Source of the DNA: a virus
Length of the DNA stretch: 40,509 bases
IMG/VR virus record: IMGVR_UViG_3300006131_000033
Reading direction: 5' to 3' (one strand)
Position numbers and translations under genes: made by a program. Positions 2,475 through 22,090 of this stretch are shown here, one piece after another. Under the pieces are notes generated by a model, which saw nothing but the letters and a program-made list of their open reading frames with translations, searched no databases and had not been told where the DNA came from. Every line of letters begins with the position of its first letter. Positions within the stretch are counted from its first letter, which is position 1.

Positions 2475-3167
2475 TCACTCCTTCATCGTAAAGGTGCGGC
2501 CCAAGCGGCTCTCATAGGCTTTCTTCACCTTGGCATACACCACGGGAAGGGCGGCGTCTGAGATGGCCTCGATACTTTCCACCCCGGGATAGCCCCGGCT
2601 ATCCGCCCTTGTGATAGATAGATAGGCCAGTTTGATCTTGTCCTTATCACCGCCGTAAAGCTCGTCCATCATCTGGGGGATGGCCATACGGTAGTAAGCC
2701 GCATTCTCCCGGGACGCTTGGGTGCCCCTCTGGGCCTTCTCCCCGCCCTGCCCCCGCCGGTCATTGTCCGGATCATCCTTTTTCGTGGGAACGTGAAAGA
2801 ACTTCAGGAGAAAATACTTTTCGGCGTAGGTGAGGGCCTTTCCCACGCCCTTCTCTCCGGCCAGATCCACCCCCTGGGCGTACCAGGGAACCTCCAAACG
2901 CTCCCCGCTCTCAATGTCGTGCCAGACCATTGTCAAGGAAAGCTCGGTGAGATAGCGGGAAGTACCGCTTTTTGTGGTACCCTCATGAATCTGGGCGGAG
3001 GTCACAATGGGGATCAGCAGTAGCTTATACTCGTCCATCAGCGGGCGGAAACGGTCCAGCACGTTCTCATCGGAGGCGAAGTCGTACTTGTCGGAGAGAT
3101 TCTTTCCGTCCTTAATCACGGCGTCTACCGCCTTCTGCATTTCCAGCAGTTTCTCATATAGATTCAT
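2475..3167 (-). CDS. erf: ERF-family single-strand annealing recombinase
   Basis: MNLYEKLLEMQKAV...KYDFASDENVLDRFRPLMDEYKLLL and KALTYAEKYFLLKFF match ERF family hallmarks. SD is TAGGAGG. Confidence 0.8.
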   Translation of the reverse strand: MNLYEKLLEMQKAVDAVIKDGKNLSDKYDFASDENVLDRFRPLMDEYKLLLIPIVTSAQIHEGTTKSGTSRYLTELSLTMVWHDIESGERLEVPWYAQGVDLAGEKGVGKALTYAEKYFLLKFFHVPTKKDDPDNDRRGQGGEKAQRGTQASRENAAYYRMAIPQMMDELYGGDKDKIKLAYLSITRADSRGYPGVESIEAISDAALPVVYAKVKKAYESRLGRTFTMKE

Positions 3168-7217: not shown

Positions 7218-7221
7218 GCCT

Positions 7222-7783: not shown

Positions 7784-7812
7784 TTGAATCTCCATTTTCT
7801 ATGTGGTACACT
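7784..7812 (+). promoter_or_regulatory. Candidate plus-strand promoter pointing against the early operon
   Basis: TTGAAT (7784-7789), 17-nt spacer, TGg-TACACT (extended -10, 7804-7812). Confidence 0.4.
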
Positions 7813-7819
7813 TAATTCG

Positions 7820-7985: not shown

Positions 7986-7988
7986 TAC

Positions 7989-8213: not shown

Positions 8214-8233
8214 ATTCGGCGAAAATCTGTCTG

Positions 8234-8277
8234 CCGCTCTTTCATGGTCGCACATGGAAGAGCGGTATTTTATATTT
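8234..8277 (+). terminator. Intrinsic terminator hairpin (better U-tract on the plus strand; may act bidirectionally)
   Basis: CCGCTCTTTCATG / CATGGAAGAGCGG, a 13-bp stem with one mismatch and a 6-nt loop, followed by TATTTTATATTT. Confidence 0.5.
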
Positions 8278-8908: not shown

Positions 8909-9180
8909 GCTTTCTCTCCTTCCGGGGAATATGGCACCCCGACAATTTCACAAATCTCTTTACCAGTGAGGTGGAGCTGTCGTGCAAGTTTGGAAGCCCG
9001 GTCAAATCCAAAACCACGGTAAAGGTCTTTCTTTCGTTTGGCATAGGTACTCTGTCCCATCCCCATGGTCTTGGCCACATCTTGGTCACGGGGAAGATCC
9101 ATATCAACTCTTGCCCTCGCAATGGCTCTTTGAAGGGCTTTCTCCCGTTGCTGCTGGTCAGTCAGGCGCGGGCGGGGCAT
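8905..9180 (-). CDS. Hypothetical protein, possible HTH
   Basis: Start moved to ATG 9180 (GGGGGGAGG upstream). ATGA overlap with the next gene. Confidence 0.55.
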   Translation of the reverse strand: MPRPRLTDQQQREKALQRAIARARVDMDLPRDQDVAKTMGMGQSTYAKRKKDLYRGFGFDRASKLARQLHLTGKEICEIVGVPYSPEGEKA

Positions 9181-9383
9181 ACGCCTCCCCCCTTCCGGGC
9201 AACTCCTGTTTGGTGCCATCCGTCAGACAGCCGGGCCATAGCGATCTTGGCCCCACGCTCGGTCCGGTAGTTCTTGGTATGAATCAGGCGGCCGTTTCTT
9301 CCCCTGACGGTCAAACAGACACCGCCGCTCTTGGCCGTGCGGATAGTAGCCACGCAGCCATAGAAGTCGTGGTAAATCTTCAT
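9162..9383 (-). CDS. Small hypothetical protein
   Basis: Start moved to ATG 9383 (AAGGAGAAG upstream). Translation is MKIYHDFYGCVATIRTAKSGGVCLTVRG... Confidence 0.55.
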   Translation of the reverse strand: MKIYHDFYGCVATIRTAKSGGVCLTVRGRNGRLIHTKNYRTERGAKIAMARLSDGWHQTGVARKGGGVCPARA

Positions 9384-9420
9384 AGGATACTTCTCCTTTC
9401 CGTCCTTTTTATTGGACAGG

Positions 9421-9636
9421 TCATGTGGTACGCTGGGACTGATCCAGTTCAATAATGCGGGCGATAGGGACACTGAACGCCTCCGCAAGCCCAGCGGCTA
9501 CGGTGACATCCATCTTCTTCTGACGGTCACCATTCTCGATAGCGCAGTAGTAGCTTTCGGAAATGTGAAGTCTATCACCCATTTCCTTCATAGTGTAGCC
9601 CTTCTCAATGCGCAAAATTTTTAGCCATTCTCTCAT
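9421..9636 (-). CDS. Cro-like XRE-family HTH regulator
   Basis: LRIEKGYTMKEMGDRLHISESYYCAIENG is an XRE HTH. First gene of the minus-strand early operon, divergent from the repressor. Confidence 0.8.
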   Translation of the reverse strand: MREWLKILRIEKGYTMKEMGDRLHISESYYCAIENGDRQKKMDVTVAAGLAEAFSVPIARIIELDQSQRTT

Positions 9637-9790
9637 TTTTTCACCCCCCTAAACTTCTCAAATTGTGAAGTTCAAGAGTATAATAAACCTATCTTCTCAA
9701 AATGTCAAGTTTTTTCTTGTCAATTTGAAAAGTTCTATTTACTTTTCATTTTGTGAAGTGTAGAATGGGAGCAGAAAGGGAGGGAGCGAT
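9637..9790. promoter_or_regulatory. Divergent lysis-lysogeny switch with four 17-bp operators and two promoters
   Basis: Operators are CTTnTCAwwwTGnnAAG at 9654-9670, 9693-9709, 9716-9732 and 9742-9758. Minus-strand promoter: TTGACA (9703-9708), 17 nt, TATTAT (9680-9685). Plus-strand promoter: TTTACT (9738-9743), 17 nt, TAGAAT (9761-9766). Confidence 0.7.
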
Positions 9791-10135
9791 GTGCAAAACC
9801 GTATTCGTGAAATCAGAAAGGCTCTTGGCCTCACAATGAAAGAATTGGGTGAGAGGGTTGACGCCGCTGAGAGTACAATATCCCAATATGAGACAGGGAA
9901 ACGGCAACCAGACAATGAAACCTTATTAAAACTGGGAGAGGCTTTAGATGTATCTGTCGGTTATCTGCTCGGCGTTGAGCCGAGAGAGGGTGACCGAGTT
10001 GTTACTATGGATGACTTCACCTATGCCCTACAGAACGAGGCCAAGACGCTCACTGATATGGACAAGCAGATATTGCTATCAATGGCGAAACAGTTGAATG
10101 AAGCGAGGCAGAAGAAAGATGAGGGAACTGACTGA
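9791..10135 (+). CDS. CI-like XRE-family repressor
   Basis: IREIRKALGLTMKELGERVDAAESTISQYETGKRQP is an XRE HTH. GTG start after GGGAGGGAG. Confidence 0.85.
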   Translation: MQNRIREIRKALGLTMKELGERVDAAESTISQYETGKRQPDNETLLKLGEALDVSVGYLLGVEPREGDRVVTMDDFTYALQNEAKTLTDMDKQILLSMAKQLNEARQKKDEGTD

Positions 10136-10583
10136 TATTTACAAGTGGTTTGAGGATAGGGATATTCTACTGTTTGACCGTCAACTGCCGTTCAGTAATG
10201 AGCAGTCGAAGGCCATAACGATCCGGTTGCGGGGCAACGATGTCACCGGGGTATTCCTTGACTTGGGCCGCATTGATACCTCCGCAGAAGAAGCCGTCAC
10301 CCTTCTCCATGAAGGTGGGCATTGTGCTACTGGAACCACCCACGCCATCGTTAGCCCCTTTGACCTGATAGCAAAGCACGAATACAAAGCAGATAAATGG
10401 GCTGTTCAGGGGGCCGTCACCAAAGAAGAGTTGGAAAATGCCCGAAAAAACGGATATAGAGAGATTTATGAGCTGGCCGATTTCTTCAATCTCACCGAGT
10501 CCTTTATGAAAAAAGTGGTTTGCTGGTACGACCATGGAAATCTCGATGTAGACCTCTACTATCCAAATATTGAAACAGCATAG
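10119..10583 (+). CDS. ImmA/IrrE-family zinc metallopeptidase (anti-repressor protease)
   Basis: HEGGH (HExxH) motif. It overlaps the end of the repressor gene, the ImmR/ImmA-type pairing. Confidence 0.75.
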   Translation: MRELTDIYKWFEDRDILLFDRQLPFSNEQSKAITIRLRGNDVTGVFLDLGRIDTSAEEAVTLLHEGGHCATGTTHAIVSPFDLIAKHEYKADKWAVQGAVTKEELENARKNGYREIYELADFFNLTESFMKKVVCWYDHGNLDVDLYYPNIETA

Positions 10584-10599
10584 AGGGAAGGGTAAGAAA

Positions 10600-11907
10600 A
10601 TGAAGAAACCGCCAAAATCTCGCATGACTTTTAATGATTTTTTTACGTTTTCTGGGTTAATCCTCGGATGTACATTTCTGCTTGTCCTCAAAAACGGGTG
10701 GTCATCTGATAGCGTTTGGGAAAAATTACTTATTTCCTTAATGGCAATTGGGTCGTTCTCCATATCCTTCAGCCGAAGGGCGAGGTATATTGTGGGTGCA
10801 ATCTTTTTTGGAATTGAAGCCGTCTTTATGTTATACCTGTCTGTCATAAATTGGGAGTGGAATATTGACTATATATTATTTACTGTTCTTGTTTGCTGCG
10901 TCTTTTTAATCCCTTGCGCTTTTCTGCTTGCAAAAGGATTAGACGGTAAAAGAAGCGTTTCGATTTCCAATGTCGATGTTATGACTGGCCCGCAATTTGA
11001 GGCTTTTTGTGGAGAATTGCTAAAACAGAACGGATTCCAGAATGTCCAAGTAATGGGTGGTTCTGGAGACCAGGGCGTGGACATCATTGCAAAAAAGGAA
11101 GGTCTTCGGTACGCTATACAGTGTAAGCGGTATTCAAGCAAATTGGGAAATACCCCAGTTCAAGAGGTTTTTTCGGGAAGAGTCCATTACGGATGCGATA
11201 TAGCCGTGGTAATGACAAATAACTATTTTACGGCAGGAGCGGCGGAGCTTGCCAGGTCAACCGGAGTTTTTCTTTGGGATAGAGACTGGATAAGTAATCA
11301 TATGCCCAGAAAGCAGAAAACGAGGAAGGCAAAATATTTAACATTTCGTTGGAGAAAACAAAAAGCGAAAAAAGAAAATTCTCTTGTGGATGCCCTATTA
11401 GAATACCTACCAAACATAAGCGACCAGTGGCATTTTACATTTCTGTGTGCCGATATATTGGAAAGCTACGGATTTCACTATGTGCAAATAAAGGACAACC
11501 GAGATATAATTGGGGCAAATTTGTGTGGAATGTTCGATGATAAATGGTATGTGATAAGTTGTGTTTTTACCGAAGGAATTGTGAATGCGGAAATTGTAAA
11601 TGCGATTTTGCGAGATAGGGATTCTTACAAAGTGGATTATGCCGCAATTATGACAACGGGTCATTTTGATGACATCCCCTCTGTTCCTGGCCTCTTTTTG
11701 TGGGATTACGAGTGGATAGTGAGCCACCCGCCAAAGCAGACATCAAGTCTTGAACAGTATCAATTATGGATTCAAGATCACGAGAGCATGGATAAGAATT
11801 TTGAGGAACAAGAAAGTATTAACCTATCTGATTTTGAGATAATGCAAATTTTAGGCCAGGAGAGGATATGGCGCAATAGACAAGCGGCGGGTCTCGACAA
11901 CGATTGA
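10600..11907 (+). CDS. Membrane protein with four TM helices and tandem Mrr_cat-like (PD-(D/E)XK) domains, the second degenerate
   Basis: TM segments are FFTFSGLILGCTFLLVL, LLISLMAIGSFSISF, IVGAIFFGIEAVFMLYLSVI and ILFTVLVCCVFLIPCAFLLA. Domain 1 reads FEAFCGELLKQNGF..GDQGVDIIA..YAIQCKRY..FLWDRDWI. Domain 2 reads FTFLCADILESYGF..RDIIGA..WYVISCVF..FLWDYEWI. The region is AT-richer than its flanks. Confidence 0.75.
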   Translation: MKKPPKSRMTFNDFFTFSGLILGCTFLLVLKNGWSSDSVWEKLLISLMAIGSFSISFSRRARYIVGAIFFGIEAVFMLYLSVINWEWNIDYILFTVLVCCVFLIPCAFLLAKGLDGKRSVSISNVDVMTGPQFEAFCGELLKQNGFQNVQVMGGSGDQGVDIIAKKEGLRYAIQCKRYSSKLGNTPVQEVFSGRVHYGCDIAVVMTNNYFTAGAAELARSTGVFLWDRDWISNHMPRKQKTRKAKYLTFRWRKQKAKKENSLVDALLEYLPNISDQWHFTFLCADILESYGFHYVQIKDNRDIIGANLCGMFDDKWYVISCVFTEGIVNAEIVNAILRDRDSYKVDYAAIMTTGHFDDIPSVPGLFLWDYEWIVSHPPKQTSSLEQYQLWIQDHESMDKNFEEQESINLSDFEIMQILGQERIWRNRQAAGLDND

Positions 11908-12012
11908 CCAAAGCAGAAGCCGGTAGCTACTCCAATGAAAGAACCCGTCCACTCTCGTGAACGGCGAAAGTGAAGGACCATTTTGTTAGCGTCAACAAAA
12001 AGGAGTATCCGA

Positions 12013-12867
12013 ATGGAAAAGGAATTGATCGCCAGACTGAAGCTGACCTTTGATGACATCGCCCACCAGACAGAGGACGGAGTGGAGTACTGGCTTGCCC
12101 GGGAGCTGCAGGATGTGCTGGGATATGCCAAATGGGATAAATTTCAAAATGTTCTTGAAAAGGCCATTATATCCTGTGAGAACAGCGGCAATAAAAGTTT
12201 AGACCATTTTCTCCAAGTGGGGAAAATGGTTCCCATCGGTTCAGGTGCAGAGAGGGAAATTGAAGACTTTATGCTCACCCGCTACGCCTGCTATCTGATT
12301 GCCATGAACGGCGACAGTTCTAAGAATGAAATTGCCTTTGCGCAGAGCTACTTTGCCGTCCAAACACGGAAGCAAGAGATTATTGAGGAGCGGCTTGAAC
12401 TGATCCACAGGCTTCAACTTCGGGAACAACTGCGTGATGCAGAAAAGAGACTATCTCAAAACATATACGATCGTGGCGTAGATGACAGCGGATTTGCCCG
12501 TATCCGTTCAAAGGGCGATAAGGCCCTCTTTGGTGGGCTTACCACCCAGCAGATGAAGGATCGTTATGGAGTCAAGAGCGGCGCCCTGGCTGACAAGCTC
12601 CCGGCGGTTACTATTGCGGCTAAAACCCTTGCAACAGAGATGACTAATTTGAATATTGAGCAAAAAGATATTCAGGGAGAGCAGCCTATCACAGACGAGC
12701 ATGTCCAGAACAATAGAAGTATCCGGAAGATGTTGACTGACCGTGGCATTCGCCCGGAAACACTTCCACCTGAGGAGGATATCAAAAAGCTGGAACGCAG
12801 AGTGAAGAAGGAAGAAAAGCAGCTCGCCGACAAGGAAAAAATAAATCCTCCAGAAACAGAGCAATAA
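12013..12867 (+). CDS. dinD: DinD-like (DNA-damage-inducible protein D family) protein
   Basis: Collinear with E. coli DinD as I recall it: W.ARELQ..LGY, CENSG, LTRYACYL, FAVQTRKQE, LFGG. ATG 12013 after AAAAGGAG. Confidence 0.75.
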   Translation: MEKELIARLKLTFDDIAHQTEDGVEYWLARELQDVLGYAKWDKFQNVLEKAIISCENSGNKSLDHFLQVGKMVPIGSGAEREIEDFMLTRYACYLIAMNGDSSKNEIAFAQSYFAVQTRKQEIIEERLELIHRLQLREQLRDAEKRLSQNIYDRGVDDSGFARIRSKGDKALFGGLTTQQMKDRYGVKSGALADKLPAVTIAAKTLATEMTNLNIEQKDIQGEQPITDEHVQNNRSIRKMLTDRGIRPETLPPEEDIKKLERRVKKEEKQLADKEKINPPETEQ

Positions 12868-12997
12868 AAAACCGCCCCCGATGCGCCAACACCGAGAGCG
12901 GAAGATGCAAAGACCCGACCAACCACGATCAAGGCCCTACTGCCCACTTATTCTACAACAAAAAGGGCGGGGCCGCAAGCGAAAGGAGAAATTTTGC

Positions 12998-14056
12998 TTG
13001 AAAGTACCAAAGGCCCGCAAGCTGCCATCGGGGGTGTGGTTCATCCAACTGCGTTTAGGCGGGGAAAGTATTCCCGTCTCGGCACGGACGGAAAAAGAAT
13101 GTATCAGGCAGGCTCAGCTTATCAAGGCCGAGCATCTGACCGGGAAACGCAGAAAAAGCGAAAAGATACAGGATAAAGACGCCACACTTGGAGAGGCAAT
13201 AGACGCTTATATCGCTTCAAGGTCAAATGTCATATCCCCTTCCACGCTGACCGGATACGATAAAATCAGGCGGACAAGGTTTCAAGATGAGATGGGGCGG
13301 GAGTTGTCATTGATCCTACCGAGAGAATGGGTGTCCATCGTAAACAAAGAGGCATCACTCGTTGGAGCAAAAACACTAAAAAATGCCTGGGCGCTCGTTC
13401 GGTCATCGGTCAAATATTATACCGGTGAGCAGCTTCCAGAAGTACCTCTTCCCCAGTCTGTACCAAATGAGAGACCATTTCTCGACCCGGAGCAAATAAA
13501 GATATTTATGGGCGCAATTCACGGGGGAAAATACGAGATTCCCTTACTTTTGGCCTTGTCCAGTTTGCGGCAATCGGAAATATTGGGATTGCAATGGGGA
13601 CAGGTGGACCTAAAAAGACGGGTAATACACGTCAAAGGATCTGTTGTTTACTCAAAGGGCGGGATGGTGGCGAAGCCAGAAAATAAAAACAGAAGCTCAA
13701 CGAGAACCGTTCCCATATTGATGGATGAATTATATAATGCACTCAAAAGCGAGCAAAAAACGACAGGACCGGTGGCATATTATGCGCCAACAACAATGAG
13801 GCGATATATCCTATCTATCTGTGAGGAAAATGGATTGCCATCGGTCTCTATACATTGCTTGCGCCACTCATTTGCATCGCTGGCCTACCATCTGGGAGTG
13901 CCAGAAAAGGTTACAATGGAAATCGGTGGGTGGTCCGATGACCACACCATGAAGAAAATATATACTCATATAGCGCGGTCAGATATAGACCGTTACACAG
14001 CAGCCTTCGGTGATTTTTTCTCAAAAAACGCTAACGAGAATGCTAATCAAGAATAA
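12998..14056 (+). CDS. int: Tyrosine recombinase / phage integrase
   Basis: LRQSEILGL (Arg box), HCLRHSF (HxxR) and KIYTHI (catalytic Tyr). Start set at TTG 12998 after GGAG. The open frame extends to 12881, but that extension is low-complexity basic. Confidence 0.85.
   Translation: MKVPKARKLPSGVWFIQLRLGGESIPVSARTEKECIRQAQLIKAEHLTGKRRKSEKIQDKDATLGEAIDAYIASRSNVISPSTLTGYDKIRRTRFQDEMGRELSLILPREWVSIVNKEASLVGAKTLKNAWALVRSSVKYYTGEQLPEVPLPQSVPNERPFLDPEQIKIFMGAIHGGKYEIPLLLALSSLRQSEILGLQWGQVDLKRRVIHVKGSVVYSKGGMVAKPENKNRSSTRTVPILMDELYNALKSEQKTTGPVAYYAPTTMRRYILSICEENGLPSVSIHCLRHSFASLAYHLGVPEKVTMEIGGWSDDHTMKKIYTHIARSDIDRYTAAFGDFFSKNANENANQE
14023..14053 (+). repeat. att-flanking direct repeat, left copy (inside the int 3' end)
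   Basis: AAAAAACGCTAACGAGAATGCTAATCAAGAA matches 14253-14283 at 25 of 31 positions. Confidence 0.55.
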
Positions 14057-14090
14057 GATACATTGCAGAGCAAGCGGTTTAAGGTTTCTA

Positions 14091-14120
14091 TTCGGGGTTC
14101 GACTCCCCCCGCCTCCACCA
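14091..14120 (+). other. attP core candidate: 3' end of a tRNA/tmRNA-like gene (T-arm, acceptor 3' strand, ACCA)
   Basis: TTCGGGGTTCGACTCCCCCCGCCTCCACCA lies immediately after int. No complete cloverleaf is found upstream. The 3' strand CGCCTCC with discriminator A is compatible with a tmRNA/Ala-type GGGGGCG acceptor or with GGAGGCG. Confidence 0.55.
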
Positions 14121-14130
14121 GAATGAAAAA

Positions 14131-14162
14131 CCCTGTATCTGAAATAGATACAGGGTTTTTCT
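14131..14162 (+). terminator. Intrinsic terminator after int and the tRNA-like end
   Basis: CCCTGTATCT-GAAAT-AGATACAGGG followed by TTTTTCT. Confidence 0.75.
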
Positions 14163-14252
14163 TACTCTTCCAAGGGCATTTGCGGGTTTTTATTTTATTC
14201 CGAAGAGGAAAAATTTTTCCCGTTTTTGGGTCAAAAAACACCTTCCTGAAAG

Positions 14253-14283
14253 AAAAAATGCTAATGAAAATGCTAATGAAAAG
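14253..14283 (+). repeat. att-flanking direct repeat, right copy (contains tandem TGCTAATGAAAA x2)
   Basis: AAAAAATGCTAATGAAAATGCTAATGAAAAG. See 14023-14053. Confidence 0.55.
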
Positions 14284-14312
14284 ACTCCCAGTGGTTAGCC
14301 ACTGGGAGTCTT
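14281..14312. terminator. Bidirectional terminator hairpin ending the late (lysis) operon
   Basis: AAGACTCCCAGTGG-TTAG-CCACTGGGAGTCTT, a 14-bp perfect stem with T-rich tracts on both sides, 3 nt after the holin stop. Confidence 0.75.
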
Positions 14313-14315
14313 TTC

Positions 14316-14783
14316 TTACATATCTGTATTATCTTTTTTGTCCGCCGCCTTATCCACCGTATCACGCAGCGCCGCAATAGCCTTCACCATCCAGCCGGCC
14401 ACAGGCGCCCCCATCTTGCCGGCGTTCTCGATGATGCTCCCCGCCTCAGTAAGTATGTACCAGGCGATCATCAGCGGGCACAAAAGCACAGTATAGCGGA
14501 TCGGCAGAGCTTGTCCCATATTATCCAGCAAAAGACTCATCACAAGGTCCAGCAAGCCCGCCACCGACACGGCAGCAATACACCCCGCTTTGTGCCACAA
14601 CCCATCACGGGCTACAGCACTGGACCATTTGCCGGTTTTCAGGGCGGCCCCCATGCCTGTGAGGACATCCATCCCCATGGACACCGCCCAGGCCACTACC
14701 AACCACCCAAACCAGCCCCAGAGGGCCGTCAGGAGGCCCAGAGCAGCACTTACCGCCGCCTTAAAATGATTAACCTGCTCCAT
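14316..14783 (-). CDS. Holin (Phage_holin_4_1-like)
   Basis: Multiple TM segments. MDVLTGMGAALKTGKWSS and YILTEAGSIIENAGKMGAP match holin family 4 motifs. Adjacent to the endolysin. Confidence 0.8.
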   Translation of the reverse strand: MEQVNHFKAAVSAALGLLTALWGWFGWLVVAWAVSMGMDVLTGMGAALKTGKWSSAVARDGLWHKAGCIAAVSVAGLLDLVMSLLLDNMGQALPIRYTVLLCPLMIAWYILTEAGSIIENAGKMGAPVAGWMVKAIAALRDTVDKAADKKDNTDM

Positions 14784-14787
14784 GGTT

Positions 14788-15525
14788 TTACCTCCCCTCG
14801 ATGGCGGGCTTGTCGAACAGCCCGGCCCTATTCATCAAAATGATGGTCTGAATGTTCGGTTCCCACAAGCCCATAGAGCCATCTTCAGCGAGATTAATAT
14901 AACCGTTCTGGATGGCCTTTGTGACGGCCTCCTGACCATACGGCAGTTCATTGACATACTTATACAATTTCATGTTGTCCTCCTCTGTATTATCCGCCAT
15001 ACTGGCGTAGTCCGGGCAGCAGTAGCCCCGGATATACCGGCCGTTGATTTGGATGGTCCGGTCTCCCACCACGCTGGAGCTTCCCATATTTCCCTCTGTG
15101 ATGGTCATGGTGTTCCCCCGTACCTTTGTTACAAACCCCACATGGTTGGGGGCGTTCCTCTGGTCGGTGGTGGCGTAGTCCTTACCATCGCCCCAGTAGT
15201 ACATGATGATGTCTCCAATTTTCGGCACATAGGCATCATCTTCCACCCACCGTCCTTTTGCTTTGTAGAGCGCAATCATGGCGGTACAGCTGCACTCCAC
15301 CGGCATGATTTCCGTCAGGTCAAGGGCGATGCCCACGGCGCTCACAAAGGTAGCACACCAGTTATCGGTATAGGTGACATTGTAGGGCCGCCCATTTCGC
15401 AGGGGACGGTCCGGGTAGGCGTTGTATGTATCCACAATAGCCCGGTGGACAGTTCCGCCCTTCTTTGCTCCCATGAAGGTACGGGCCTTATCTACAACGG
15501 TCTGCCTGATTTTCTGTTCTGTCAT
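14788..15525 (-). CDS. Endolysin, CHAP / NlpC-P60-like peptidase domain
   Basis: Start moved to ATG 15525 (AAGGAG 8 nt upstream). NWCATFVSAVG provides the catalytic Cys and NHVGFV the His. Sits in the lysis position. Confidence 0.7.
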   Translation of the reverse strand: MTEQKIRQTVVDKARTFMGAKKGGTVHRAIVDTYNAYPDRPLRNGRPYNVTYTDNWCATFVSAVGIALDLTEIMPVECSCTAMIALYKAKGRWVEDDAYVPKIGDIIMYYWGDGKDYATTDQRNAPNHVGFVTKVRGNTMTITEGNMGSSSVVGDRTIQINGRYIRGYCCPDYASMADNTEEDNMKLYKYVNELPYGQEAVTKAIQNGYINLAEDGSMGLWEPNIQTIILMNRAGLFDKPAIEGR

Positions 15526-15544
15526 GAGAATCACTCCTTTTTGT

Positions 15545-15639
15545 CTGATTCCGCCACCAAGGGCTACATAGATACCGCCGTCAGCGGCTTCTCCGGCCTT
15601 CTGACTGGTGGCAGCATAAGGAAAATCTGGGCGGGGGCG
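15545..15639. repeat. Inverted repeat IR-L (95 bp) of the tail-fibre inversion architecture
   Basis: It is the reverse complement of 16340-16434 with 4 transitions (91/95). It encodes ATKGYIDTAVSGFSGLLTGGSIRKIWAGA on the plus strand. Confidence 0.9.
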
Positions 15640-15992
15640 GTAACTGGTGGTCCTAATATCTATGAGGCCATTCCAACAGACGCCTTGATTTTGGGTGATA
15701 CAACCGCATTTTTTATGCAAAAAATTTAGGTGGTACTTCAGGGCGGAAGCCTGTTTTTTTGGCTGCTAATAACAGCATAGATCTCGGCGAATCTACTATC
15801 TGTGCATTTTATCCAGATGGACTAGTTAGCGGCAATGTCCTTTTCCGGTCCGGTTTAGCTTCCAATGAATACCAACACGTAGATGGCGTTTCCTATGTCA
15901 GATATGTTGTATCAAGAAACTATGTTATTCCCTCAAATGTTCTCGCTATTGTTATGATATATTGCACCAAAGGCTTTGTCTACGCCGACTAA
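15545..15992 (+). pseudogene. Promoterless, start-less alternative tail-fibre C-terminal cassette (silent; needs a -1 shift near 15699-15729)
   Basis: The plus frame continues from IR-L (..IRKIWAGAVTGGPNIYEAIPTDALILGDTTAFFMQKI*) and stops at 15727-15729. The -1 frame is open from 15699 to 15992 and ends ..TKGFVYAD*, the same C-terminal motif as the expressed fibre (..PVGFVYAD*). Confidence 0.6.
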
Positions 15993-16009
15993 TCTGCGTA
16001 GACAAAGCC
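15972..16009. repeat. Central 14-bp inverted repeat where the two fibre C-termini converge
   Basis: GGCTTTGTCTACGC (15972-15985) and GCGTAGACAAAGCC (15996-16009). Both arms encode GFVYA. Confidence 0.85.
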
Positions 16010-16747
16010 AACGGGGGAATAAACAATTATAAAGCCGAAGCTGAAATAGCGGGCTACTATATTATAATTACCCGCCGTGTATATCGGATATTTTACTCCA
16101 TCTACCGTTTGTGATCCAGCATCATACCATCCACAAGTAAAATTTACTGAGTCTGAACTTACGCCCGAATCTCGAATCAGCATCATCTCTCCGCTCGAAT
16201 TTCTGGACGGGAGGAGGACGCAAGGAGTATAGTCATAAGAACTTGAAGTACTCCCACTTGGCGGTATTATTACAAGTGCAAGATTTTCTCCAAATATGAG
16301 AGCTGAACTTACCACGGCCTTAGCACTTGAGCTAACAGACGCCCCCGCCCAGATTTTCCTTATGCTGCCGCCAGTCAGAAGGCCGGAGAAGCCGCTGACG
16401 GCGGTATCTACATAGCCTTTGGTGGCGGAATCAGCGGCGCCGGTGGGGGTGGCGAGGTTGGTGATTTTCTTTTTACCCATGTTAATGGCACCGGTCATGG
16501 TACCGCCGGACTTTGGCAGGAGCCGGGAAACTGCGGTGTCAAGAGAGTCTTGGGTGGCAAACCCCGCCGTCTCCAGGTAATCCCGAAGCTGATTGATGGC
16601 CTTCTGTGCATCGTTAATGTATTGGTTAAGAGCATTATAGCCGTGCTGAGCCGTTAGGCCGACAGAGACCCCGTCCGGGCTGACGATTTGGCCGTTTGTC
16701 CAGTCTTGCGGAAGGTCTGCGGGAAGATTGAAATTGGGTATGGGCAT
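15989..16747 (-). CDS. Tail fibre protein (expressed variant)
   Basis: LPKSGGTMTGAINMGKKKITNLATPTGAADSATKGYVD is the classic fibre collar motif. It follows the baseplate genes. Confidence 0.8.
   Translation of the reverse strand: MPIPNFNLPADLPQDWTNGQIVSPDGVSVGLTAQHGYNALNQYINDAQKAINQLRDYLETAGFATQDSLDTAVSRLLPKSGGTMTGAINMGKKKITNLATPTGAADSATKGYVDTAVSGFSGLLTGGSIRKIWAGASVSSSAKAVVSSALIFGENLALVIIPPSGSTSSSYDYTPCVLLPSRNSSGEMMLIRDSGVSSDSVNFTCGWYDAGSQTVDGVKYPIYTAGNYNIVARYFSFGFIIVYSPVGFVYAD
16340..16434. repeat. Inverted repeat IR-R (95 bp) inside the expressed tail-fibre gene
   Basis: Reverse complement of 15545-15639. Confidence 0.9.
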
Positions 16748-16748
16748 T

Positions 16749-17645
16749 TTAATTCCCCTCCTTTACAGGTATCGTGTGCTTCAGTTGCACACCATCATTT
16801 GCTACGGCAACATAGATTGTGGAGGATGTAAGAGCATTTCCGGCAGCGTCCAGCAGCTCAATCTTGGTCACTTCGGTTACCTGACTCTGTGTAAGACCAT
16901 AGGACACGGTCAATGTGTTGCCGTTGACCTCTTTTGTGATGTCCTCGATAACGATGGACCCGTTGATACGAACAGATGCTATGTCGGAGGATACGAACCC
17001 GGCCACTCCGTTCAGCAGTTCGGGCTGAACAGACGGCATATTTGCCATTTTTATGACCCCCTCGTTAGTGATAGTTTGGAACGGCTGCGAGAACAGCGCC
17101 CACGCTCCGAGTCTGTAATTCCACTTTCTCTCTGCGCTGGAAATGGTCTCGGTCAGTTCCAAAGAGTAGTTGATAAATGGAACGCTGATATAGACTATAT
17201 GGGCAGGCTTGATTTTTCCGATGGTGACGGAAATTTCATTTGCGTACTGAAAATCTTCTGCGCTGGCCTCAATGTACATAGTGTAATGCTCATAATCCAT
17301 GCGGACCTCCCAGTTTCCCGGGCCGAGCATCCGATCCAGTTGTTGGCGCAAAAATTCCATCGTATAGGGAGGGCGGGAAGATAGGCGGTTGAGGATACGG
17401 GAGCGTCTGAACTCCAGCGTTTCCGTGTATATGTTCGGGATGATGCCGAAGATATTTTCCCAGTCCGCTATTGCGGTCTCCCCCATCGTCTGGATATAAA
17501 AATTGTCGCCAACGGCGACAATCTCATTGGCCAGAGCATCGATCTCTTCCTGCTCGGTCTTACATATCTCCTGATAATCCAGTATCTCCCGATACCATGG
17601 TGGAAGCAGGGATAGAAGGTCAATATTGAGATCCGGATTAGACAC
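16749..17645 (-). CDS. XkdU / YmfQ-like (DUF2313) baseplate/tail protein
   Basis: LLPPWYREILDYQEI...ETAIADWENIFGI...RRSRILNRL matches the DUF2313 pattern. Position is after baseplate J. Confidence 0.75.
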   Translation of the reverse strand: MSNPDLNIDLLSLLPPWYREILDYQEICKTEQEEIDALANEIVAVGDNFYIQTMGETAIADWENIFGIIPNIYTETLEFRRSRILNRLSSRPPYTMEFLRQQLDRMLGPGNWEVRMDYEHYTMYIEASAEDFQYANEISVTIGKIKPAHIVYISVPFINYSLELTETISSAERKWNYRLGAWALFSQPFQTITNEGVIKMANMPSVQPELLNGVAGFVSSDIASVRINGSIVIEDITKEVNGNTLTVSYGLTQSQVTEVTKIELLDAAGNALTSSTIYVAVANDGVQLKHTIPVKEGN

Positions 17646-18756
17646 TCAATGTCACCCCTCCCATAATGGCCACCTGCTGCAGCTCACCGCTCTGGATCAT
17701 GGACAGGTCGGCTGCTGTTCCATTCAGCGTCACACCGGTGGCATTCAGTACCCCGGCAACGCTAAGAATGGCAGCGGTGACTCGGGCGAGGAAGATATCG
17801 GCGTTATACTCTACGCTTGCGCTGCTGAGAGGCGTAGCCCAGTTCTTTCTGGTATCGAGAAAATAAGACTGGATGGCCGCTTCCACAAGGGGCTTTACCT
17901 GCTCCACGGTGGATCCGGGTGTCAGCGTCAGCGTTGCGGTAATGTCCACTGCCACCGTTTCGGGAGCGGTCACTGTCACCGTTGCACCGATGGGGGCAAG
18001 GCCCAACCCTAAACCCTGATTGGGCGGCGGGTCGATTGCGCTTTGTACCGTCTCCACCAACACAGAAGACGCCGGGAGAAAGTCGGCACCCAGAAGAGAC
18101 AGCTTGACCGTCCCGCCGCCGTTCCATGTAGGCCATACCTGTACCGCCCCAACACCGGAGATATCAGTGGCCCATTCCCGGTAATTGGCGATGTTGCCGC
18201 CGTAGGGCCGCTCATTGAGAGCGGAGATGATGCGCTGGCGCAGAACGTTATCGCTTTCGGTGTCCTCGCCGGGTACCAGAATGTCACTGATTTGGGCGGA
18301 GGTAAGGCCTGGGATAGTGGAGATGGGTAGAATGGGTCCCACATAGTCATTGCCGATGCTCCCCGCCGTCTCCGCCGTCAGCTGATACTGATTTGCTCCG
18401 GTATCAGATGCGGCGGTCACAATAAAGTTAATGCTGTCCGCCCCGTTGACGGTGGAGAACCGGGAGCCAATGGGGACGGCAATATTGAAAATACCGAGCC
18501 GGACCGCCGGGGACGCCTGTGAACGGGCCACCCCCGCCAGAATAGAAAGCATATCCAGATTGTCGCCTGTGGCGGTCTGGATATATCCTTGCTGCTGCAC
18601 TTGGGAAAGGACCAGATAGAACCCCTCCAACGCCCACGCAGCGGGACCCAACGCCGTGGGAATAGGGGAAGTATCCCGTTTGTCGTAGGTGTTGGGTACC
18701 CGGTCAAGCATCTGTTGGAGAATGGCTTGATAGGTTTTATTTGTAAAGTCGTTCAT
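17638..18756 (-). CDS. Baseplate J-like protein (XkdT-like)
   Basis: 372 aa. The N-terminal YQAILQQMLDRVPNTYDKRDTSPI pattern and the synteny fit. Confidence 0.8.
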   Translation of the reverse strand: MNDFTNKTYQAILQQMLDRVPNTYDKRDTSPIPTALGPAAWALEGFYLVLSQVQQQGYIQTATGDNLDMLSILAGVARSQASPAVRLGIFNIAVPIGSRFSTVNGADSINFIVTAASDTGANQYQLTAETAGSIGNDYVGPILPISTIPGLTSAQISDILVPGEDTESDNVLRQRIISALNERPYGGNIANYREWATDISGVGAVQVWPTWNGGGTVKLSLLGADFLPASSVLVETVQSAIDPPPNQGLGLGLAPIGATVTVTAPETVAVDITATLTLTPGSTVEQVKPLVEAAIQSYFLDTRKNWATPLSSASVEYNADIFLARVTAAILSVAGVLNATGVTLNGTAADLSMIQSGELQQVAIMGGVTLSV

Positions 18757-18757
18757 G

Positions 18758-19180
18758 TTATCCCTCCCGCCGGGATTGGAATGTGAAGTTTATGGATTCG
18801 GTCTCTCCATAAACAGTCAGGACCCGAAAGGACACGGTCATTGTATCGCCGTCCACAGTGACAGCATAATCGCTTATTCCGGAAATCCGGTTGTCCATGG
18901 ACAGAGCCTCCCGGATTCTCCTTTGCAGTTCAGCGGCCACAAAATCGCTTTCCAGTCCCAGAAGGTCGTCCAGCCGGACACCGGAAAACGCCCTGTAAAT
19001 TTGCCATTCAAATCGCTCCGTGTTGATGATGATCTCAGCTGCCTGTGCAACGGCTGTGAGGCGGTCCGCATAGCCTTCTATCCGGTTTGTCTCTTTGTTG
19101 ATGCTCCATGTCAAAGATGGGAGCTGCCTATATTCCACGCCGGCAGAAATAACGCCGTTCCCCTCTGGTAGTGTCGCCAT
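18758..19180 (-). CDS. XkdS-like / gp25-W-like baseplate wedge protein
   Basis: 140 aa, directly upstream of baseplate J. LPSLTWSIN..RIEGY pattern. Confidence 0.65.
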   Translation of the reverse strand: MATLPEGNGVISAGVEYRQLPSLTWSINKETNRIEGYADRLTAVAQAAEIIINTERFEWQIYRAFSGVRLDDLLGLESDFVAAELQRRIREALSMDNRISGISDYAVTVDGDTMTVSFRVLTVYGETESINFTFQSRREG

Positions 19181-19192
19181 CCGCTCACCCCT

Positions 19193-19699
19193 TTACTGGT
19201 ATATCCTTGACAGTACAATAAACTTTTGGCCGTGAAGCACCCGCAGCAGGAGGACTTTATCGCCAACAGACAGCCCCCGGTTAAGAATGATATACCCGCT
19301 CTCTACCGGAAGGGGCTTTCCATGCTCTACCGCTTGAATATTCTCCAGGGCCGCAGAAGACGGAAAACTGCTCCCGGCCATCTCCTCGCTGGTCTGATAG
19401 CTGCCGGAAAGGCTGGAGGATGTTGCGGCCCCGTTCAGCGTGTGGGAGTGGTCCAACCCTGTCACTGTGTGCTTGTGCTTCAGACCGCTTACGTCATGCC
19501 GGTGGGCAAGGATAGGGATCTTTTTCTCTACCACACTTTCGGTAAGGTACAGCACCTCTTCACGCAGGTCCTCCATAGCGGTGCTGATCGAGATACGCAA
19601 AGGGGCCACAGCGGTTACTGTACCTGTAATAAGGTCGGTAAGCTGCATGGCCTCGCTATTCGCCTGCATCATGGAGAAAAGCTGTTCGGCCAGTGTCAC
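19193..19699 (-). CDS. XkdR-like (DUF2577) baseplate protein
   Basis: Start moved to GTG 19699 (GAAGGAGGGG upstream), which removes the overlap with the antirepressor gene. His-rich central segment. Synteny fits. Confidence 0.6.
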   Translation of the reverse strand: MTLAEQLFSMMQANSEAMQLTDLITGTVTAVAPLRISISTAMEDLREEVLYLTESVVEKKIPILAHRHDVSGLKHKHTVTGLDHSHTLNGAATSSSLSGSYQTSEEMAGSSFPSSAALENIQAVEHGKPLPVESGYIILNRGLSVGDKVLLLRVLHGQKFIVLSRIYQ

Positions 19700-19714
19700 G
19701 GTGTTCCCCTCCTT

Positions 19715-19757
19715 CAAAATGCGACCACCGCCGCCCCGGACGGGGGTGACGGTGGTC
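19715..19757 (-). terminator. Terminator of the antirepressor moron
   Basis: On the minus strand: GACCACCG-TCA-CCCC GTCC GGGG-CGG-CGGTGGTC followed by GCATTTTG. Confidence 0.55.
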
Positions 19758-19767
19758 CTTGATTCTC

Positions 19768-20499
19768 TTATTCTGCCCCAATCAGGAGCAAGCGGAAAGT
19801 CTCTCTCCCTTTCGGAGTGATGAGCGTCTGTGTCCCACTCCACTGTGTCTTTTCGTTAATGCACTCCTTGACTTCAAACAGGCCGTTGTTTCTGTCCTCA
19901 TAAGGAAGGAGCTTCCCCTTTTTATCCCGGTAGATATACTTCCGATCCAAAAGGAAGCTGACAAACCTCCTGGGTGGAACTTTGAGCTGCTTTGCCGTTT
20001 CCCGGAAACCCGTCAGGAGGTTGCGGTCCACCAGCTCATCGAAATACTCCGCTTTAGGCCGGGCGATCTCCAAATCCACCCTTGCGGCGGAAAGCTGGGC
20101 TTTCTGGTTCTCAATGGTCCGCTGGGCCACGATAAGGGCCTGCGCCATCAACTCCTCCGGGTTCATCTGATTCTGCCCGTGAATGTAGCCGCCGTTGCGT
20201 CGGATGGAGGGAATGACCTCATGGGTGATCCACCGCTTAAAGGCTTTCGCCTCCTTCTTGCGGCTTCCGAGAATCAGAGAGTAAAGACCAGGTTCGTTGA
20301 CGGTGGTCATCTCCTGCTCCCCGCCAAGGGTGTGCGTTGAACACACACCCTTTTCATCATCGTCCAAGCGGCGTACTTGCGTCCTGCTTATTTCCAGTGC
20401 CTGGCACACATCCGCCGCCACAAACCACGGTTCCCCGTTGACTTCCACCGTTCTGATCTCCCCAAACTCGGGGTTGTTGAAAATCATAAGTTCATTCAT
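19768..20499 (-). CDS. Phage antirepressor (Bro-N domain plus KilA-C/ANT-like C-terminal domain)
   Basis: IFNNPEFGEIRTVEVNGEPWFVAADVCQALEI...EPGLYSLILGSRKKEAKAFKRWITHEVIPSIR is a Bro-N domain. Confidence 0.8.
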   Translation of the reverse strand: MNELMIFNNPEFGEIRTVEVNGEPWFVAADVCQALEISRTQVRRLDDDEKGVCSTHTLGGEQEMTTVNEPGLYSLILGSRKKEAKAFKRWITHEVIPSIRRNGGYIHGQNQMNPEELMAQALIVAQRTIENQKAQLSAARVDLEIARPKAEYFDELVDRNLLTGFRETAKQLKVPPRRFVSFLLDRKYIYRDKKGKLLPYEDRNNGLFEVKECINEKTQWSGTQTLITPKGRETFRLLLIGAE

Positions 20500-20717
20500 A
20501 CAGCAGCCTCCTTTCTGGCCTCTGCAAAGGCCTGGTCGATAAGCTCCCGCATCATATCACTGTCTTCTTTCAGATGGTTCAATGCAAACAGCAGGGCGTT
20601 CACAAACTCTGCCGGTTCAAACGGGCCTTCGTCCATGGCCGTATGTATGGCGGTTATGGCGTCAATGCCACAGGAAATCTGGAACTGAACGCTATCCATT
20701 TTTGCTAAGTTGCTCAT
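20496..20717 (-). CDS. Small hypothetical protein (73 aa) co-transcribed with the antirepressor
   Basis: ATG 20717 after CAAGGAGGTTTTTCAAT. ATGA overlap with the antirepressor start. The longer 173-aa track ORF is an artefactual extension. Confidence 0.55.
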   Translation of the reverse strand: MSNLAKMDSVQFQISCGIDAITAIHTAMDEGPFEPAEFVNALLFALNHLKEDSDMMRELIDQAFAEARKEAAV

Positions 20718-20739
20718 ATTGAAAAACCTCCTTGAAATT

Positions 20740-20781
20740 CCAAGGAAGGTTTGATAGAATAAATTTATCAAACCTCCTTGG
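20740..20781. repeat. Inverted repeat / RNA hairpin carrying an SD-like AAGGAGG arm
   Basis: CCAAGGAAGGTTTGATA (20740-20756) and TATCAAACCTCCTTGG (20766-20781), 16 bp plus one bulge. Confidence 0.7.
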
Positions 20782-20835
20782 TTTGGTGGAATAACGGATT
20801 CGCTCAACTTTCGACGGGAGGGCGTTTCCGTTATT

Positions 20836-21009
20836 TTATTTGCCGAGTTCTTCGTCGAGTTTTCTCCTGAACCATTCGGTTCTACCCTCTCCTCTTTGGG
20901 CAAGTTTTTTGTCGAGGGCTTCGGCCTTCTCCTTATCAACCATAAATACAAGTTGTTTTTTTGCCTTTCGGAGTTCTCGGAAGTATTCGGCACGACTTTT
21001 TTCAGCCAC
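20836..21009 (-). CDS. Arc/Mnt-like ribbon-helix-helix regulator (57 aa)
   Basis: GTG 21009 after AAGGAGGTGAAACA. Translation VAEKSRAEYFRELRKAKKQLVFMVDKEKAEALDKKLAQRGEGRTEWFRRKLDEELGK has a strand-helix-helix pattern. It is in a different frame from the track ORF 20496..21017. Confidence 0.6.
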   Translation of the reverse strand: MAEKSRAEYFRELRKAKKQLVFMVDKEKAEALDKKLAQRGEGRTEWFRRKLDEELGK

Positions 21010-21020
21010 TGTTTCACCTC

Positions 21021-21064
21021 CTTGTTGCTAACAACAATATATCATGTTGTTAGCAACAAGTCAA
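21021..21064 (-). promoter_or_regulatory. Near-consensus promoter overlapped by a 16-bp perfect palindromic operator
   Basis: Minus strand: TTGACT (21059-21064), 17 nt, TATATT (21036-21041). The inverted repeat is CTTGTTGCTAACAACA (21021-21036) and TGTTGTTAGCAACAAG (21045-21060). Confidence 0.7.
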
Positions 21065-21183
21065 GAGGTTTTTCAAAATTTTTTTAAATTCTTTGAGTTC
21101 CATGTTACAGGAAACTCCCAGCTGTTCCCCCACCTCATTTTTCTTATTTCCGCTACCTCCCACATATTTTTTTACTCGATGTA

Positions 21184-21213
21184 TTGACTATTTCTGTTTG
21201 TTCATGTCATAAT
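21184..21213 (+). promoter_or_regulatory. Promoter of the toxin-antitoxin cassette
   Basis: TTGACT (21184-21189), 18 nt, TGt-CATAAT (21205-21213). Confidence 0.6.
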
Positions 21214-21235
21214 ATTGATACAAGGAGGTGTAAGT

Positions 21236-21772
21236 ATGGCCAATGTATTTGATGTCGCTGAGTTCTTCATCCGTATTGCAAACCAGAGTGAAGACGACCA
21301 AATGACTAACATGAAGTTAAACAAGCTATTGTACTACGCCCAAGGAGCCTTTCTCGCCCGGACAGGTAAGCCACTGTTTGAGAATCAAATTGAGGCCTGG
21401 CCTTTGGGGCCGGTAGTCACTGATATTTATCACAAATACAAAGTTTGTGGTAAAAACCCCATCAGTTCTGACGAGGATGTAAATCACGCAGCGTTTACGG
21501 AAGAGGAATTTGAAACCCTACTTGATGTGATGCGGGAATATGGCAAGTACACCGGTTCCACTCTCGTCTCTCTCTCCCACCTCCCCGGCACCCCGTGGCG
21601 CAACACTCAAGAGAAGGGGGAAAAAGTGCTGGATCGTGATGAAATAGCGGCTTATTTCATTGCCCATCCCGTCCCCCACTTAAAGGAAAAAATTACCACT
21701 CCGCAGGTCGCCGCCCTCCCGGCTGACTGGTATGACCCGGAAGAGGATGCCGAGTGGGAGGCGTATCTATGA
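21236..21772 (+). CDS. DUF4065 (SocA / Panacea-domain) antitoxin-like protein
   Basis: MANVFDVAEFFI...MTNMKLNKLLYYAQGAFLARTGKPLFENQIEAWPLGPVV..IY is the DUF4065 signature. ATG 21236 after AAGGAGG. Confidence 0.8.
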   Translation: MANVFDVAEFFIRIANQSEDDQMTNMKLNKLLYYAQGAFLARTGKPLFENQIEAWPLGPVVTDIYHKYKVCGKNPISSDEDVNHAAFTEEEFETLLDVMREYGKYTGSTLVSLSHLPGTPWRNTQEKGEKVLDRDEIAAYFIAHPVPHLKEKITTPQVAALPADWYDPEEDAEWEAYL

Positions 21773-22065
21773 GCAAATGGGATGTCTATCTTGCAAATGT
21801 CCCATTTGAGGACACCGCAGAATCAAAAATCAGACCTATCGTCATTTTAGATGATTCTGCCGTTGTGATCGACTGCTTGAAGATGACATCAAAACCGCCT
21901 CGCCTTGGGGAATATGTATTGCAGAAGTGGAGCGAGGCGGGTCTCAAAAAAGAAACAGCGGTTCGCATCTCTAAGCGGCTTTCCCTCAATTCTGCTACTC
22001 TTATAAAAAAGCTGGGTTCCTTACAGGCCATAGACATTATTGAGATTCAAAAGAGAATTACTTGA
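21769..22065 (+). CDS. MazF/PemK-like toxin
   Basis: ATGA overlap with the antitoxin gene. WDVYLANVPFEDTAESKIRPIVIL...CLKMTSK matches the MazF/PemK N-terminal pattern. 98 aa. Confidence 0.7.
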   Translation: MSKWDVYLANVPFEDTAESKIRPIVILDDSAVVIDCLKMTSKPPRLGEYVLQKWSEAGLKKETAVRISKRLSLNSATLIKKLGSLQAIDIIEIQKRIT

Positions 22066-22090
22066 TTTATCGACCAATACATAGGGCTGA

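Follow-up and report, generated by a model that had tools for sequence, protein, structure and literature searches.

A tail-fiber tip segment found in both orientations in an uncultured PBSX-like phage that encodes no dedicated invertase

Inversion switches in tail fibers are a textbook form of programmed host-range variation. In Mu G, P1 C, e14 P, and p15B Min, inversion joins the constant N terminus of a fiber protein to one of two opposed cassettes. The inverted repeats of these Din-family switches, which in Mu are 34 nucleotides (nt) long, lie in coding sequence at the junction of the constant and variable parts, and the silent cassette possesses neither a promoter nor a start codon. To our knowledge, the tail-fiber switches characterized so far all have a dedicated invertase: Gin, Cin, Pin, and Min in Proteobacteria, and Rin in the bifidophage shufflon. 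Here we describe a segment of the same layout in the viral genome IMGVR_UViG_3300006131_000033 (40,509 nt; this whole stretch is called the window, and all coordinates refer to it). The segment, at 15545-16434 with its flanking repeats, carries two opposed tip cassettes of a tail-fiber gene and occurs in both orientations across public assemblies of the window phage and its sister phages.

Related systems differ widely in how inversion is brought about. On the chromosome of Campylobacter fetus, RecA-dependent nested inversion at the sap S-layer genes moves a promoter among several cassettes. Bifidobacterium prophages carry the Rin shufflon and, in addition, a second inverted tail locus without a flanking recombinase, for which an invertase acting in trans has been proposed (PMC6109161). 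Mosaicism of tail fibers has also been described as the outcome of relaxed homologous recombination via phage Rad52-like recombinases (De Paepe et al. 2014, PMC3945230). Tail fibers are a known and enriched target of programmed inversions (PMC9881135; PMC5903667), and viral invertons have only begun to be surveyed in metagenomes (PMC13501310).

A first-pass annotation, made by a model from the letters of the window alone, had likened the segment to Mu G, and the architecture that it described is present: a constant fiber N terminus is followed by two opposed C-terminal cassettes between inverted repeats. The repeats, at 15545-15639 and 16340-16434, are 95 nt long, are identical at 91 of 95 positions, and enclose 700 nt. 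Mismatches fall at repeat positions 17, 23, 24, and 65, and the perfect-identity blocks measure 40 and 30 nt. One arm (IR-R) was placed within the fiber gene, and we indeed find it in a gene of 252 amino acids (aa) at 15989-16747 on the minus strand, where it encodes DSATKGYVDTAVSGFSGLLTGGSIRKIWAGA. The other arm (IR-L) was said to encode the same peptide on the opposite strand; it does so on the plus strand, but with one V-to-I change. The interior is AT-rich, as had been noted, with a G+C fraction of 0.39-0.45, compared with 0.50-0.58 in flanking sequence. Apart from two ends of ~117 codons each, the 700-nt segment contains no open reading frame (ORF). The parts of the locus are the following.

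16435..16747, minus strand: constant 5' part of the tail-fiber gene (ORF 15989-16747), aa 1-105, including the collar-like motif PKSGGTMTGAINMGKKKITNLATP

16340..16434, minus strand: IR-R, the arm inside the expressed gene, encoding aa 106-136 (DSATKGYVDTAVSGFSGLLTGGSIRKIWAGA)

16340..16369, with the IR-L equivalent at 15610-15639, no strand assigned: innermost 30 nt of the repeat (positions 66-95), GCAGCATAAGGAAAATCTGGGCGGGGGCG, in which all three mappable crossovers lie

15989..16339, minus strand: expressed cassette A, a 116-aa variable C-terminal domain ending in GFVYAD, stop codon TAG; the sole orientation in 16 long contigs

15972..16009, no strand assigned: tail-to-tail junction, with perfect 14-nt arms at 15972-15985 and 15996-16009 that are the GFVYAD codons of both cassettes

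15640..15992, plus strand: silent cassette D, without promoter or start codon and frameshifted, ending in GFVYAD-TAA (TAA at 15990-15992)

15709..15729, plus strand: frameshift site, T6 (15709-15714), ATG, C, A6 (15719-15724), TTTAG, one base short

15545..15639, plus strand: IR-L, the silent arm, 19 nt upstream of the start codon of the endolysin gene, which lies on the opposite strand

The fiber gene directly follows Baseplate_J and Mu-Gp48-like genes, and PHROG tail-fiber families match fiber aa 63-128. Its N terminus is identical among fibers that end in A, in the sister tips B, B', or C (see below), or in truncated D. Searches of the variable tip domains against Pfam and PHROGs gave no match, and an AlphaFold2 model of the fiber, built from an eight-sequence alignment, had a mean predicted local distance difference test score of 34.9 and was unusable.

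Set against the described systems, the locus operates in the manner of the Mu G segment but lies outside the Din family, as the invertase, the crossover site, and the chaperone genes are all absent. No Gin, Cin, Pin, or Min gene is adjacent to the segment or present anywhere in the genome, and a 26-bp gix-type site with an AAACC-NN-GGTTT core is likewise missing. Repeat length is 95-116 nt here and in the sisters instead of 34 nt, and the ~117-codon cassettes come without a chaperone gene, whereas the cassettes of Mu carry U/U'. Also different from the Din-family switches are the probable Gram-positive (Bacillota) host and the PBSX-like tail.

In outline, the second bifidophage locus (PMC6109161) is the nearest published analogue. 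It likewise belongs to a temperate phage of the Gram-positive gut flora, varies the C terminus of a receptor-binding protein by inversion, and has no flanking recombinase. It differs in having an 8-bp repeat, as opposed to a homogenized coding repeat of 95-116 nt with two cassettes, and its proteins are unrelated. The suggestion in the first-pass annotation that this may be an uncharacterized way of switching host range is thus too broad, since inversion of a tail gene without an invertase is already on record for a prophage of Gram-positive gut bacteria (Mavrich et al. 2018, PMC6109161). Rin itself differs by its own adjacent tyrosine invertase, its 11-bp rix sites, and its several cassettes. 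Whereas the Rin and Rci (R64) shufflons have a dedicated tyrosine invertase without an arm-binding domain beside their cassettes and short repeats (8-19 bp) before several cassettes, we find repeats of 95-116 nt, two cassettes, and a crossover mapped to ≤30 nt, and the only tyrosine recombinase is a full-length integrase that sits beside attP, past the lysis genes. As in the work of De Paepe et al. (PMC3945230), short conserved stretches of tail-fiber sequence may serve as points of exchange. Here, conserved sequence bounds the cassettes on both sides, and they occur in different pairings. That work concerns exchange between genomes, not the reversible inversion of two resident cassettes. If inversion is driven by homology, the nearest mechanistic analogue would be C. 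fetus sap, in which alternative coding cassettes also share a long conserved coding stretch as inverted repeat. The sap system differs in being bacterial and chromosomal, and its conserved regions span hundreds of bp at the 5' end.

That the segment inverts is shown by assembled contigs, which carry both orientations across samples. Flipped products were found by exact protein look-ups and through the 90%-identity cluster of the window fiber. Two 165-aa fibers, P0046 and P0048, begin with the constant N terminus and the repeat peptide, continue for 29 aa into D, and terminate there; they match exactly the predicted product of the flipped window. The contigs that carry these 165-aa fibers, L195 (703 nt, ERZ13410438) and L196 (1085 nt, ERZ13410478), are collinear end to end with the window inverted in silico (99.86% and 99.72%, respectively), while their alignment to the native window breaks at the repeat. 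Two strain backgrounds, TMTGAINMG and TMTGVINMG, are each seen with A and with D, which implies at least two inversion events. An assembly chimera would require both true junctions to have gone uncovered, because four positions distinguish the arms and the exchange took place within the 30-nt identical block. By rough estimate, the odds of a chimera are ~1e-6 for L196 and ~1e-3 for L195.

The same cohort also contains a 2849-bp deletion variant (17074-19922), in which the ANT antirepressor gene is joined to the 3' third of the Gp48-like gene. The deletion drops DUF2577, the sheath initiator, and baseplate J, and its junction has a microhomology of only 2-3 nt. This junction was seen in contigs L005 and L198 from two ENA samples. 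Flipped contig L196 starts at 17073, exactly at the breakpoint, so flipped copies, and more generally some copies in the cohort, may be defective prophages.

The silent side of the window does not carry the working alternative that had been expected. IR-L was described as fused to a different C-terminal domain; instead, its frame ends 29 codons past the repeat at a TAG (15727-15729; ...AFFMQKI*), and the part of D that ends in GFVYAD sits in the -1 frame relative to the IR-L frame. One added T or A in the T6 or A6 run would join the two parts into a 117-aa D domain, and this restored D is homologous to the expressed 116-aa A (global alignment, z = 8.3). Because the frameshift is identical in independent Joint Genome Institute (JGI), NCBI, and ENA assemblies and in the flipped contigs, we take it as real and not as a sequencing error. 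The earlier expectation that a flip would swap the receptor-binding end in frame is therefore half right: the flipped gene is in frame at the junction, but its product is truncated at 165 aa and, as the spare cassette is frameshifted, no working end is swapped in. D is also the most divergent of the four tip domain types, and an intact D was found in none of 5.8 billion proteins. Programmed -1 ribosomal frameshifting on CAA_AAA_A was considered as a rescue of D and rejected, as there is no stimulatory RNA structure downstream (z = +1.25). It is possible that a +1 slip in a homopolymer restores D, although this was not observed. We read the switch in this genome as effectively A-on versus defective, or as a switch in decay, within a lineage whose two-tip switch is otherwise intact.

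Sister phages display the same constant part and repeats with other tips. L007, L009, and L023 express tip B and keep a silent tip C that is intact and in frame; L020 expresses B' with C silent and lies beside an unrelated, second endolysin gene. C is the expressed tip in P0003/L017 and in P0036/L018, the latter continuing into the inverted end of B. These two contigs are collinear with L007 inverted in silico (919 nt at 98.5% for L017 and 1005 nt at 99.2% for L018). In P0042/L019, a CHAP-endolysin flank is joined to B, and in P0010, the second-endolysin flank is joined to a B' domain identical to the one expressed in L020. Flipped sister junctions were thus seen in four contigs and in both reciprocal types, and the cassette pairings found are (A,D), (B,C), (B',C), and possibly (A,C). 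A search of homologous phages for the same repeats and a linked invertase, as the first-pass annotation had proposed, recovered the repeats in these sisters and no Gin-like match in L001-L023.

The repeat arms of the sisters are identical within L007 (93 nt) and within L023 (~116 nt), yet L007 differs from L023. A 5-substitution variant, GGAAGTATTCGG, is in both arms of L023 and in neither arm of L007. This homogenization of arms within genomes amounts to concerted evolution. The outer boundary of the repeat shifts by 21 nt between lineages with different endolysins, and across all lineages no arm varies in the last 18 nt of the repeat, GGAAAATCTGGGCGGGGG. Two lines of comparison were set aside. 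The pN/pS (ratio of nonsynonymous to synonymous polymorphism) comparison for cassette B is invalid on account of an indel, and Logan contigs L010-L016, which end inside the repeat, were not taken as evidence, because assembly at k=31 breaks at the repeat.

An exact 77-nt direct repeat at both termini (1-77 and 40433-40509) marks the window as a complete circular assembly, closed by k-mer overlap, with a true genome of ~40,432 bp; the claim that it encodes no invertase accordingly holds for a complete genome. The absence of a serine recombinase, already noted in the first pass, is borne out by the lack of any PF00239 (Resolvase) match in the 59 ORFs and by a six-frame tblastn search with Mu Gin, the best E value of which was 0.08. 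A search for the Din-type crossover site (TTNTCNNAAACC-NN-GGTTTNNGANAA, 26 bp) gave 0 matches in the window at ≤3 mismatches; the degenerate consensus used agrees with the Mu gixL and gixR sequences. The tyrosine integrase had been called the only recombinase. It is the only one of a site-specific family (Pfam Phage_integrase), but an Erf annealing protein is encoded as well.

12998..14056, plus strand: tyrosine integrase, matching PHROG 1 over 341/352 aa; the only site-specific recombinase, 1.5 kb from IR-L

2475..3167, minus strand: Erf-family single-strand annealing protein (Pfam ERF, 2.3e-18; PHROG 155 Erf-like, 1.5e-32)

The Erf protein is a candidate enzyme for inversion driven by homology while the phage replicates. 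A RusA-family match was also obtained for one ORF within 176-14056. Right after the integrase stop codon, at ~14070-14120, lies a sequence that resembles the T-arm and acceptor 3' end of a tRNA, GGGGTTCGACTCCCCCCGCCTCCACCA, and this region is likely the attP core. L007 diverges from the window immediately past the holin gene and carries a different tRNA-like 3' end there; as its sequence past that gene is unrelated, no attL/attR comparison with L007 is possible.

The locus is, in our reading, a genuine two-cassette invertible switch of the tail-fiber tip. We hold it to be about an even chance that this switch is driven by homology, through host RecA or phage Erf and without a dedicated invertase. 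The fiber comprises a constant N terminus (aa 1-105), a 31-aa junction encoded by the 95-nt repeat, and a variable tip of ~116 aa. A second, promoterless tip cassette lies tail-to-tail behind the first and has the inverted repeat copy at its far end. When the two copies recombine, the 700-nt segment is inverted and the other tip is joined to the constant part; host RecA or phage Erf would bring this about by homologous recombination over the long coding repeat during replication. The same homology would also let related phages exchange tips. A wider version, which we put forward more tentatively and at somewhat less than even chances, sees a host-range switch whose tips are modules between conserved coding stretches, a ~95-nt 5' repeat and a 3' GFVYAD hairpin, so that Erf/RusA or RecA both flips the resident pair and swaps tips between phages, again with no dedicated invertase.

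Homology is favored as the driving force on three grounds: homogenization of the arms within genomes, a variable outer boundary, and apparently variable crossover positions. The repeats, at 95-116 nt, are far longer than known invertase sites. Their perfect blocks (40 and 30 nt in the window, 93-116 nt in the sisters) reach the reported minimal pairing segment of 23-34 bp (PMC3945230). For Erf-type proteins, which can recombine homologies that are short and diverged, the minimal efficient pairing segment is ~23-27 bp versus 31-34 bp for RecA (PMC3945230). Marker mosaics in L019, L023, and L007 suggest exchange on both sides of position 65. Moreover, a fixed inner crossover would leave the outer 65 nt of the silent arm permanently unexpressed, and decay would be expected there; none is seen, which again favors homology.

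Several observations weigh against a homology-driven switch. All three of the informative flipped contigs (L195, L196, and L018) cross over in the innermost 30 nt: they retain all markers of the constant flank, TGGCGG at position 65 among them, before passing into the other cassette. No crossover falls in the 40-nt perfect block, for which P is ~0.03-0.1 under uniform homologous exchange, and the second crossover interval, that of L019, is a putative one. In addition, 16/16 long assemblies of the window phage are A-expressed, and the flipped forms occur only in short contigs of low k-mer coverage (0.9-4.6x). The reciprocal junction, from the endolysin flank to A, was not found in the window lineage, where an endolysin look-up gave only contigs in native orientation. 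As the arms of the sisters are identical, their orientation in assemblies depends on how the assembler resolves the repeat. Finally, the pN/pS of cassette C is ~0.85, from very few differences, and gives no proof of selection on silent cassettes. The main rival follows from the crossovers: since all three mappable ones lie in repeat positions 66-95, as a fixed site would give, an invertase from the host chromosome or a co-resident prophage may act in trans on a short site in the innermost ~30 nt. The rest of the repeat would then be kept only as code for the junction peptide and be gene-converted occasionally. The invariance of the final 18 nt (GGAAAATCTGGGCGGGGG) in all arms and lineages agrees with such a site. 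There is precedent as well, in that the bifidophage tail locus inverts at an 8-bp site without a flanking recombinase and action in trans is known for global invertases such as Bacteroides Mpi (PMC6109161), and recombinase genes are enriched beside programmed inversions but not universal there (PMC9881135). We nevertheless regard a trans invertase as less likely than homology, given that the outer 65 nt of the silent arm, which with crossover confined to the inner end would never be translated, match the expressed arm at 100% identity in both L007 and L023 and that the repeat boundary varies among lineages. The Din consensus has 0 matches even at ≤3 mismatches, and inspection of the inner 30 nt reveals no dyad symmetry.

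It could also be argued that nothing is switched here by program, the silent cassette being a decaying duplicate and the flipped contigs rare accidents, defective prophages, or assembly artifacts. The state of D, which is frameshifted, the most divergent domain, and never found intact, would fit such decay, as would window arms that are diverging (4/95 positions) while sister arms are identical. The uniform A expression of every long assembly, the low coverage of the flipped contigs, and the start of L196 at the 2.85-kb baseplate-deletion breakpoint of the same cohort point in the same direction. We consider this explanation improbable, however, as the flip is present in two strain backgrounds, the chimera odds for L196 are very low, and the sisters keep two intact in-frame cassettes, perfectly homogenized arms, and both reciprocal junctions, an architecture that is maintained beside two unrelated endolysin genes. 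Less probable still, and to our mind very doubtful, is that the phage integrase (12998-14056) doubles as the invertase through secondary att-like sites in the repeat. It is the sole site-specific recombinase of a complete genome and lies in the same region as the switch, past the lysis genes, and phage tyrosine invertases that act on receptor-binding-protein shufflons do exist, such as Rin (PMC6109161). Yet it is of the standard type (PHROG 1) and adjoins an attP that mimics a tRNA 3' end, and the similarity between the repeat and the attP region is at chance level, with 83/300 shuffles scoring as high. Furthermore, the same repeats and cassettes occur in L007, which is unrelated past the holin gene and in which no integrase was seen there, and also in the second-endolysin lineage.

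The two cassettes had been described as converging at a 14-bp inverted repeat and both ending in GFVYAD, and we find exactly this, with perfect 14-nt arms that encode the shared ending. The arms are embedded in a quasi-palindrome with 40-nt arms that are 73% complementary. In a 101-nt context, the corresponding RNA hairpin has a folding energy of -34.2 kcal/mol (z = -4.5), and 0/200 shuffles were as stable. The hairpin lies at the fiber stop codon, is unaltered by inversion, and is not followed by a U-tract. It could mark an RNA 3' end, act as an attenuator before the lysis genes, or be a recombination or fragile site. In a separate observation, contig L197 (584 nt, ERZ13410478) has the end of cassette A tail-to-tail with the end of cassette C instead of D. 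The contig represents a fourth natural pairing, (A,C), or else a low-coverage chimera formed over the ~40-nt conserved junction. A natural (A,C) pairing would imply cassette exchange at the conserved GFVYAD junction.

The endolysin gene borders the silent side of the segment, followed by a holin gene at 14316-14783.

14788..15525, minus strand: CHAP-domain endolysin gene

As this gene lies downstream of the invertible segment on the strand of the fiber gene, it may be co-transcribed with the fiber through the segment. A 315-aa ORF at 14782-15729 on the plus strand runs antisense across the entire endolysin gene into IR-L and is almost certainly a by-product of GC-rich coding sequence; it explains the gene-caller ORFs that run from the endolysin flank into the silent cassette (e.g., P0042).

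As for the phage as a whole, the same 40.5-kb genome was assembled from many JGI samples and from one NCBI metagenome. Pfam searches of the 59 ORFs mark it as a PBSX/Xkd-type contractile-tail phage, with matches to sheath, tube, XkdN-like chaperone, YqbQ-like, Baseplate_J, and Mu Gp48-like proteins. The tail genes are followed by the fiber gene, the CHAP endolysin, the holin, and then a lysogeny module with the tyrosine integrase. No cultured phage reaches 40% identity in the baseplate J protein, the nearest relatives of which are without exception from phages of Bacillota; the closest named relative of the terminase, at 68% identity, is from a Lachnospiraceae metagenome-assembled genome. The phage is a temperate PBSX-like myovirus, probably of gut Clostridia. 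Megablast of 14000-19000 against 50,697 deposited phages gave no match, and tblastn with the fiber gave only collar-motif matches in unrelated phages. The constant N terminus, searched in metagenome, viral, and genome collections, retrieved only distant fibers with the common GGTMTG...ITNL...DAATKxYVD motif; among the 170 distant fiber loci from this search, none had repeat-flanked cassettes or a Gin-like gene. An exact search of IMG/VR for the repeat core gave 0 matches.

Some accessory genes of the window were noted as well. Between the YqbQ-like and DUF2577 baseplate genes, the window lineage carries a ~3-kb module (~19770-22070) with a PemK-like toxin, a SocA/Panacea antitoxin, two small ORFs, and a Bro-N/ANT antirepressor. 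The module is absent from L007, L009, L011, L012, and L014 and for this reason resembles a moron-type insertion in the tail operon. The lysogeny module includes a 445-aa protein with an Mrr-type restriction endonuclease domain (10570-11907, plus strand), and the early region encodes one N6/N4 and one C5 DNA methyltransferase, at 4440-5267 and 5382-7217, both on the minus strand. These ORF assignments are partly inferred, and the proteins are possible defense or counter-defense cargo. Inside or near the small-terminase region, ARAGORN called a tRNA-like gene with a four-base anticodon (ggtt) at 38452-38528 on the minus strand, which may be a false positive.

The logic of the classical tail-fiber switches is found here in uncultured temperate phages of gut-type Bacillota, in a form that has minimal, chaperone-free cassettes, long coding repeats, and no invertase in cis. 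The frameshifted spare tip of the window provides a natural example of a switch in decay beside sisters with two intact tips, and the four arm-specific markers would permit the crossovers to be mapped. If the flip uses general or phage-encoded homologous recombination, pipelines that seek an invertase or short inverted repeats would miss such switches, and a single mechanism would give both reversible switching and the exchange of cassettes between phages. The host range of gut phages may then vary without a marker gene.

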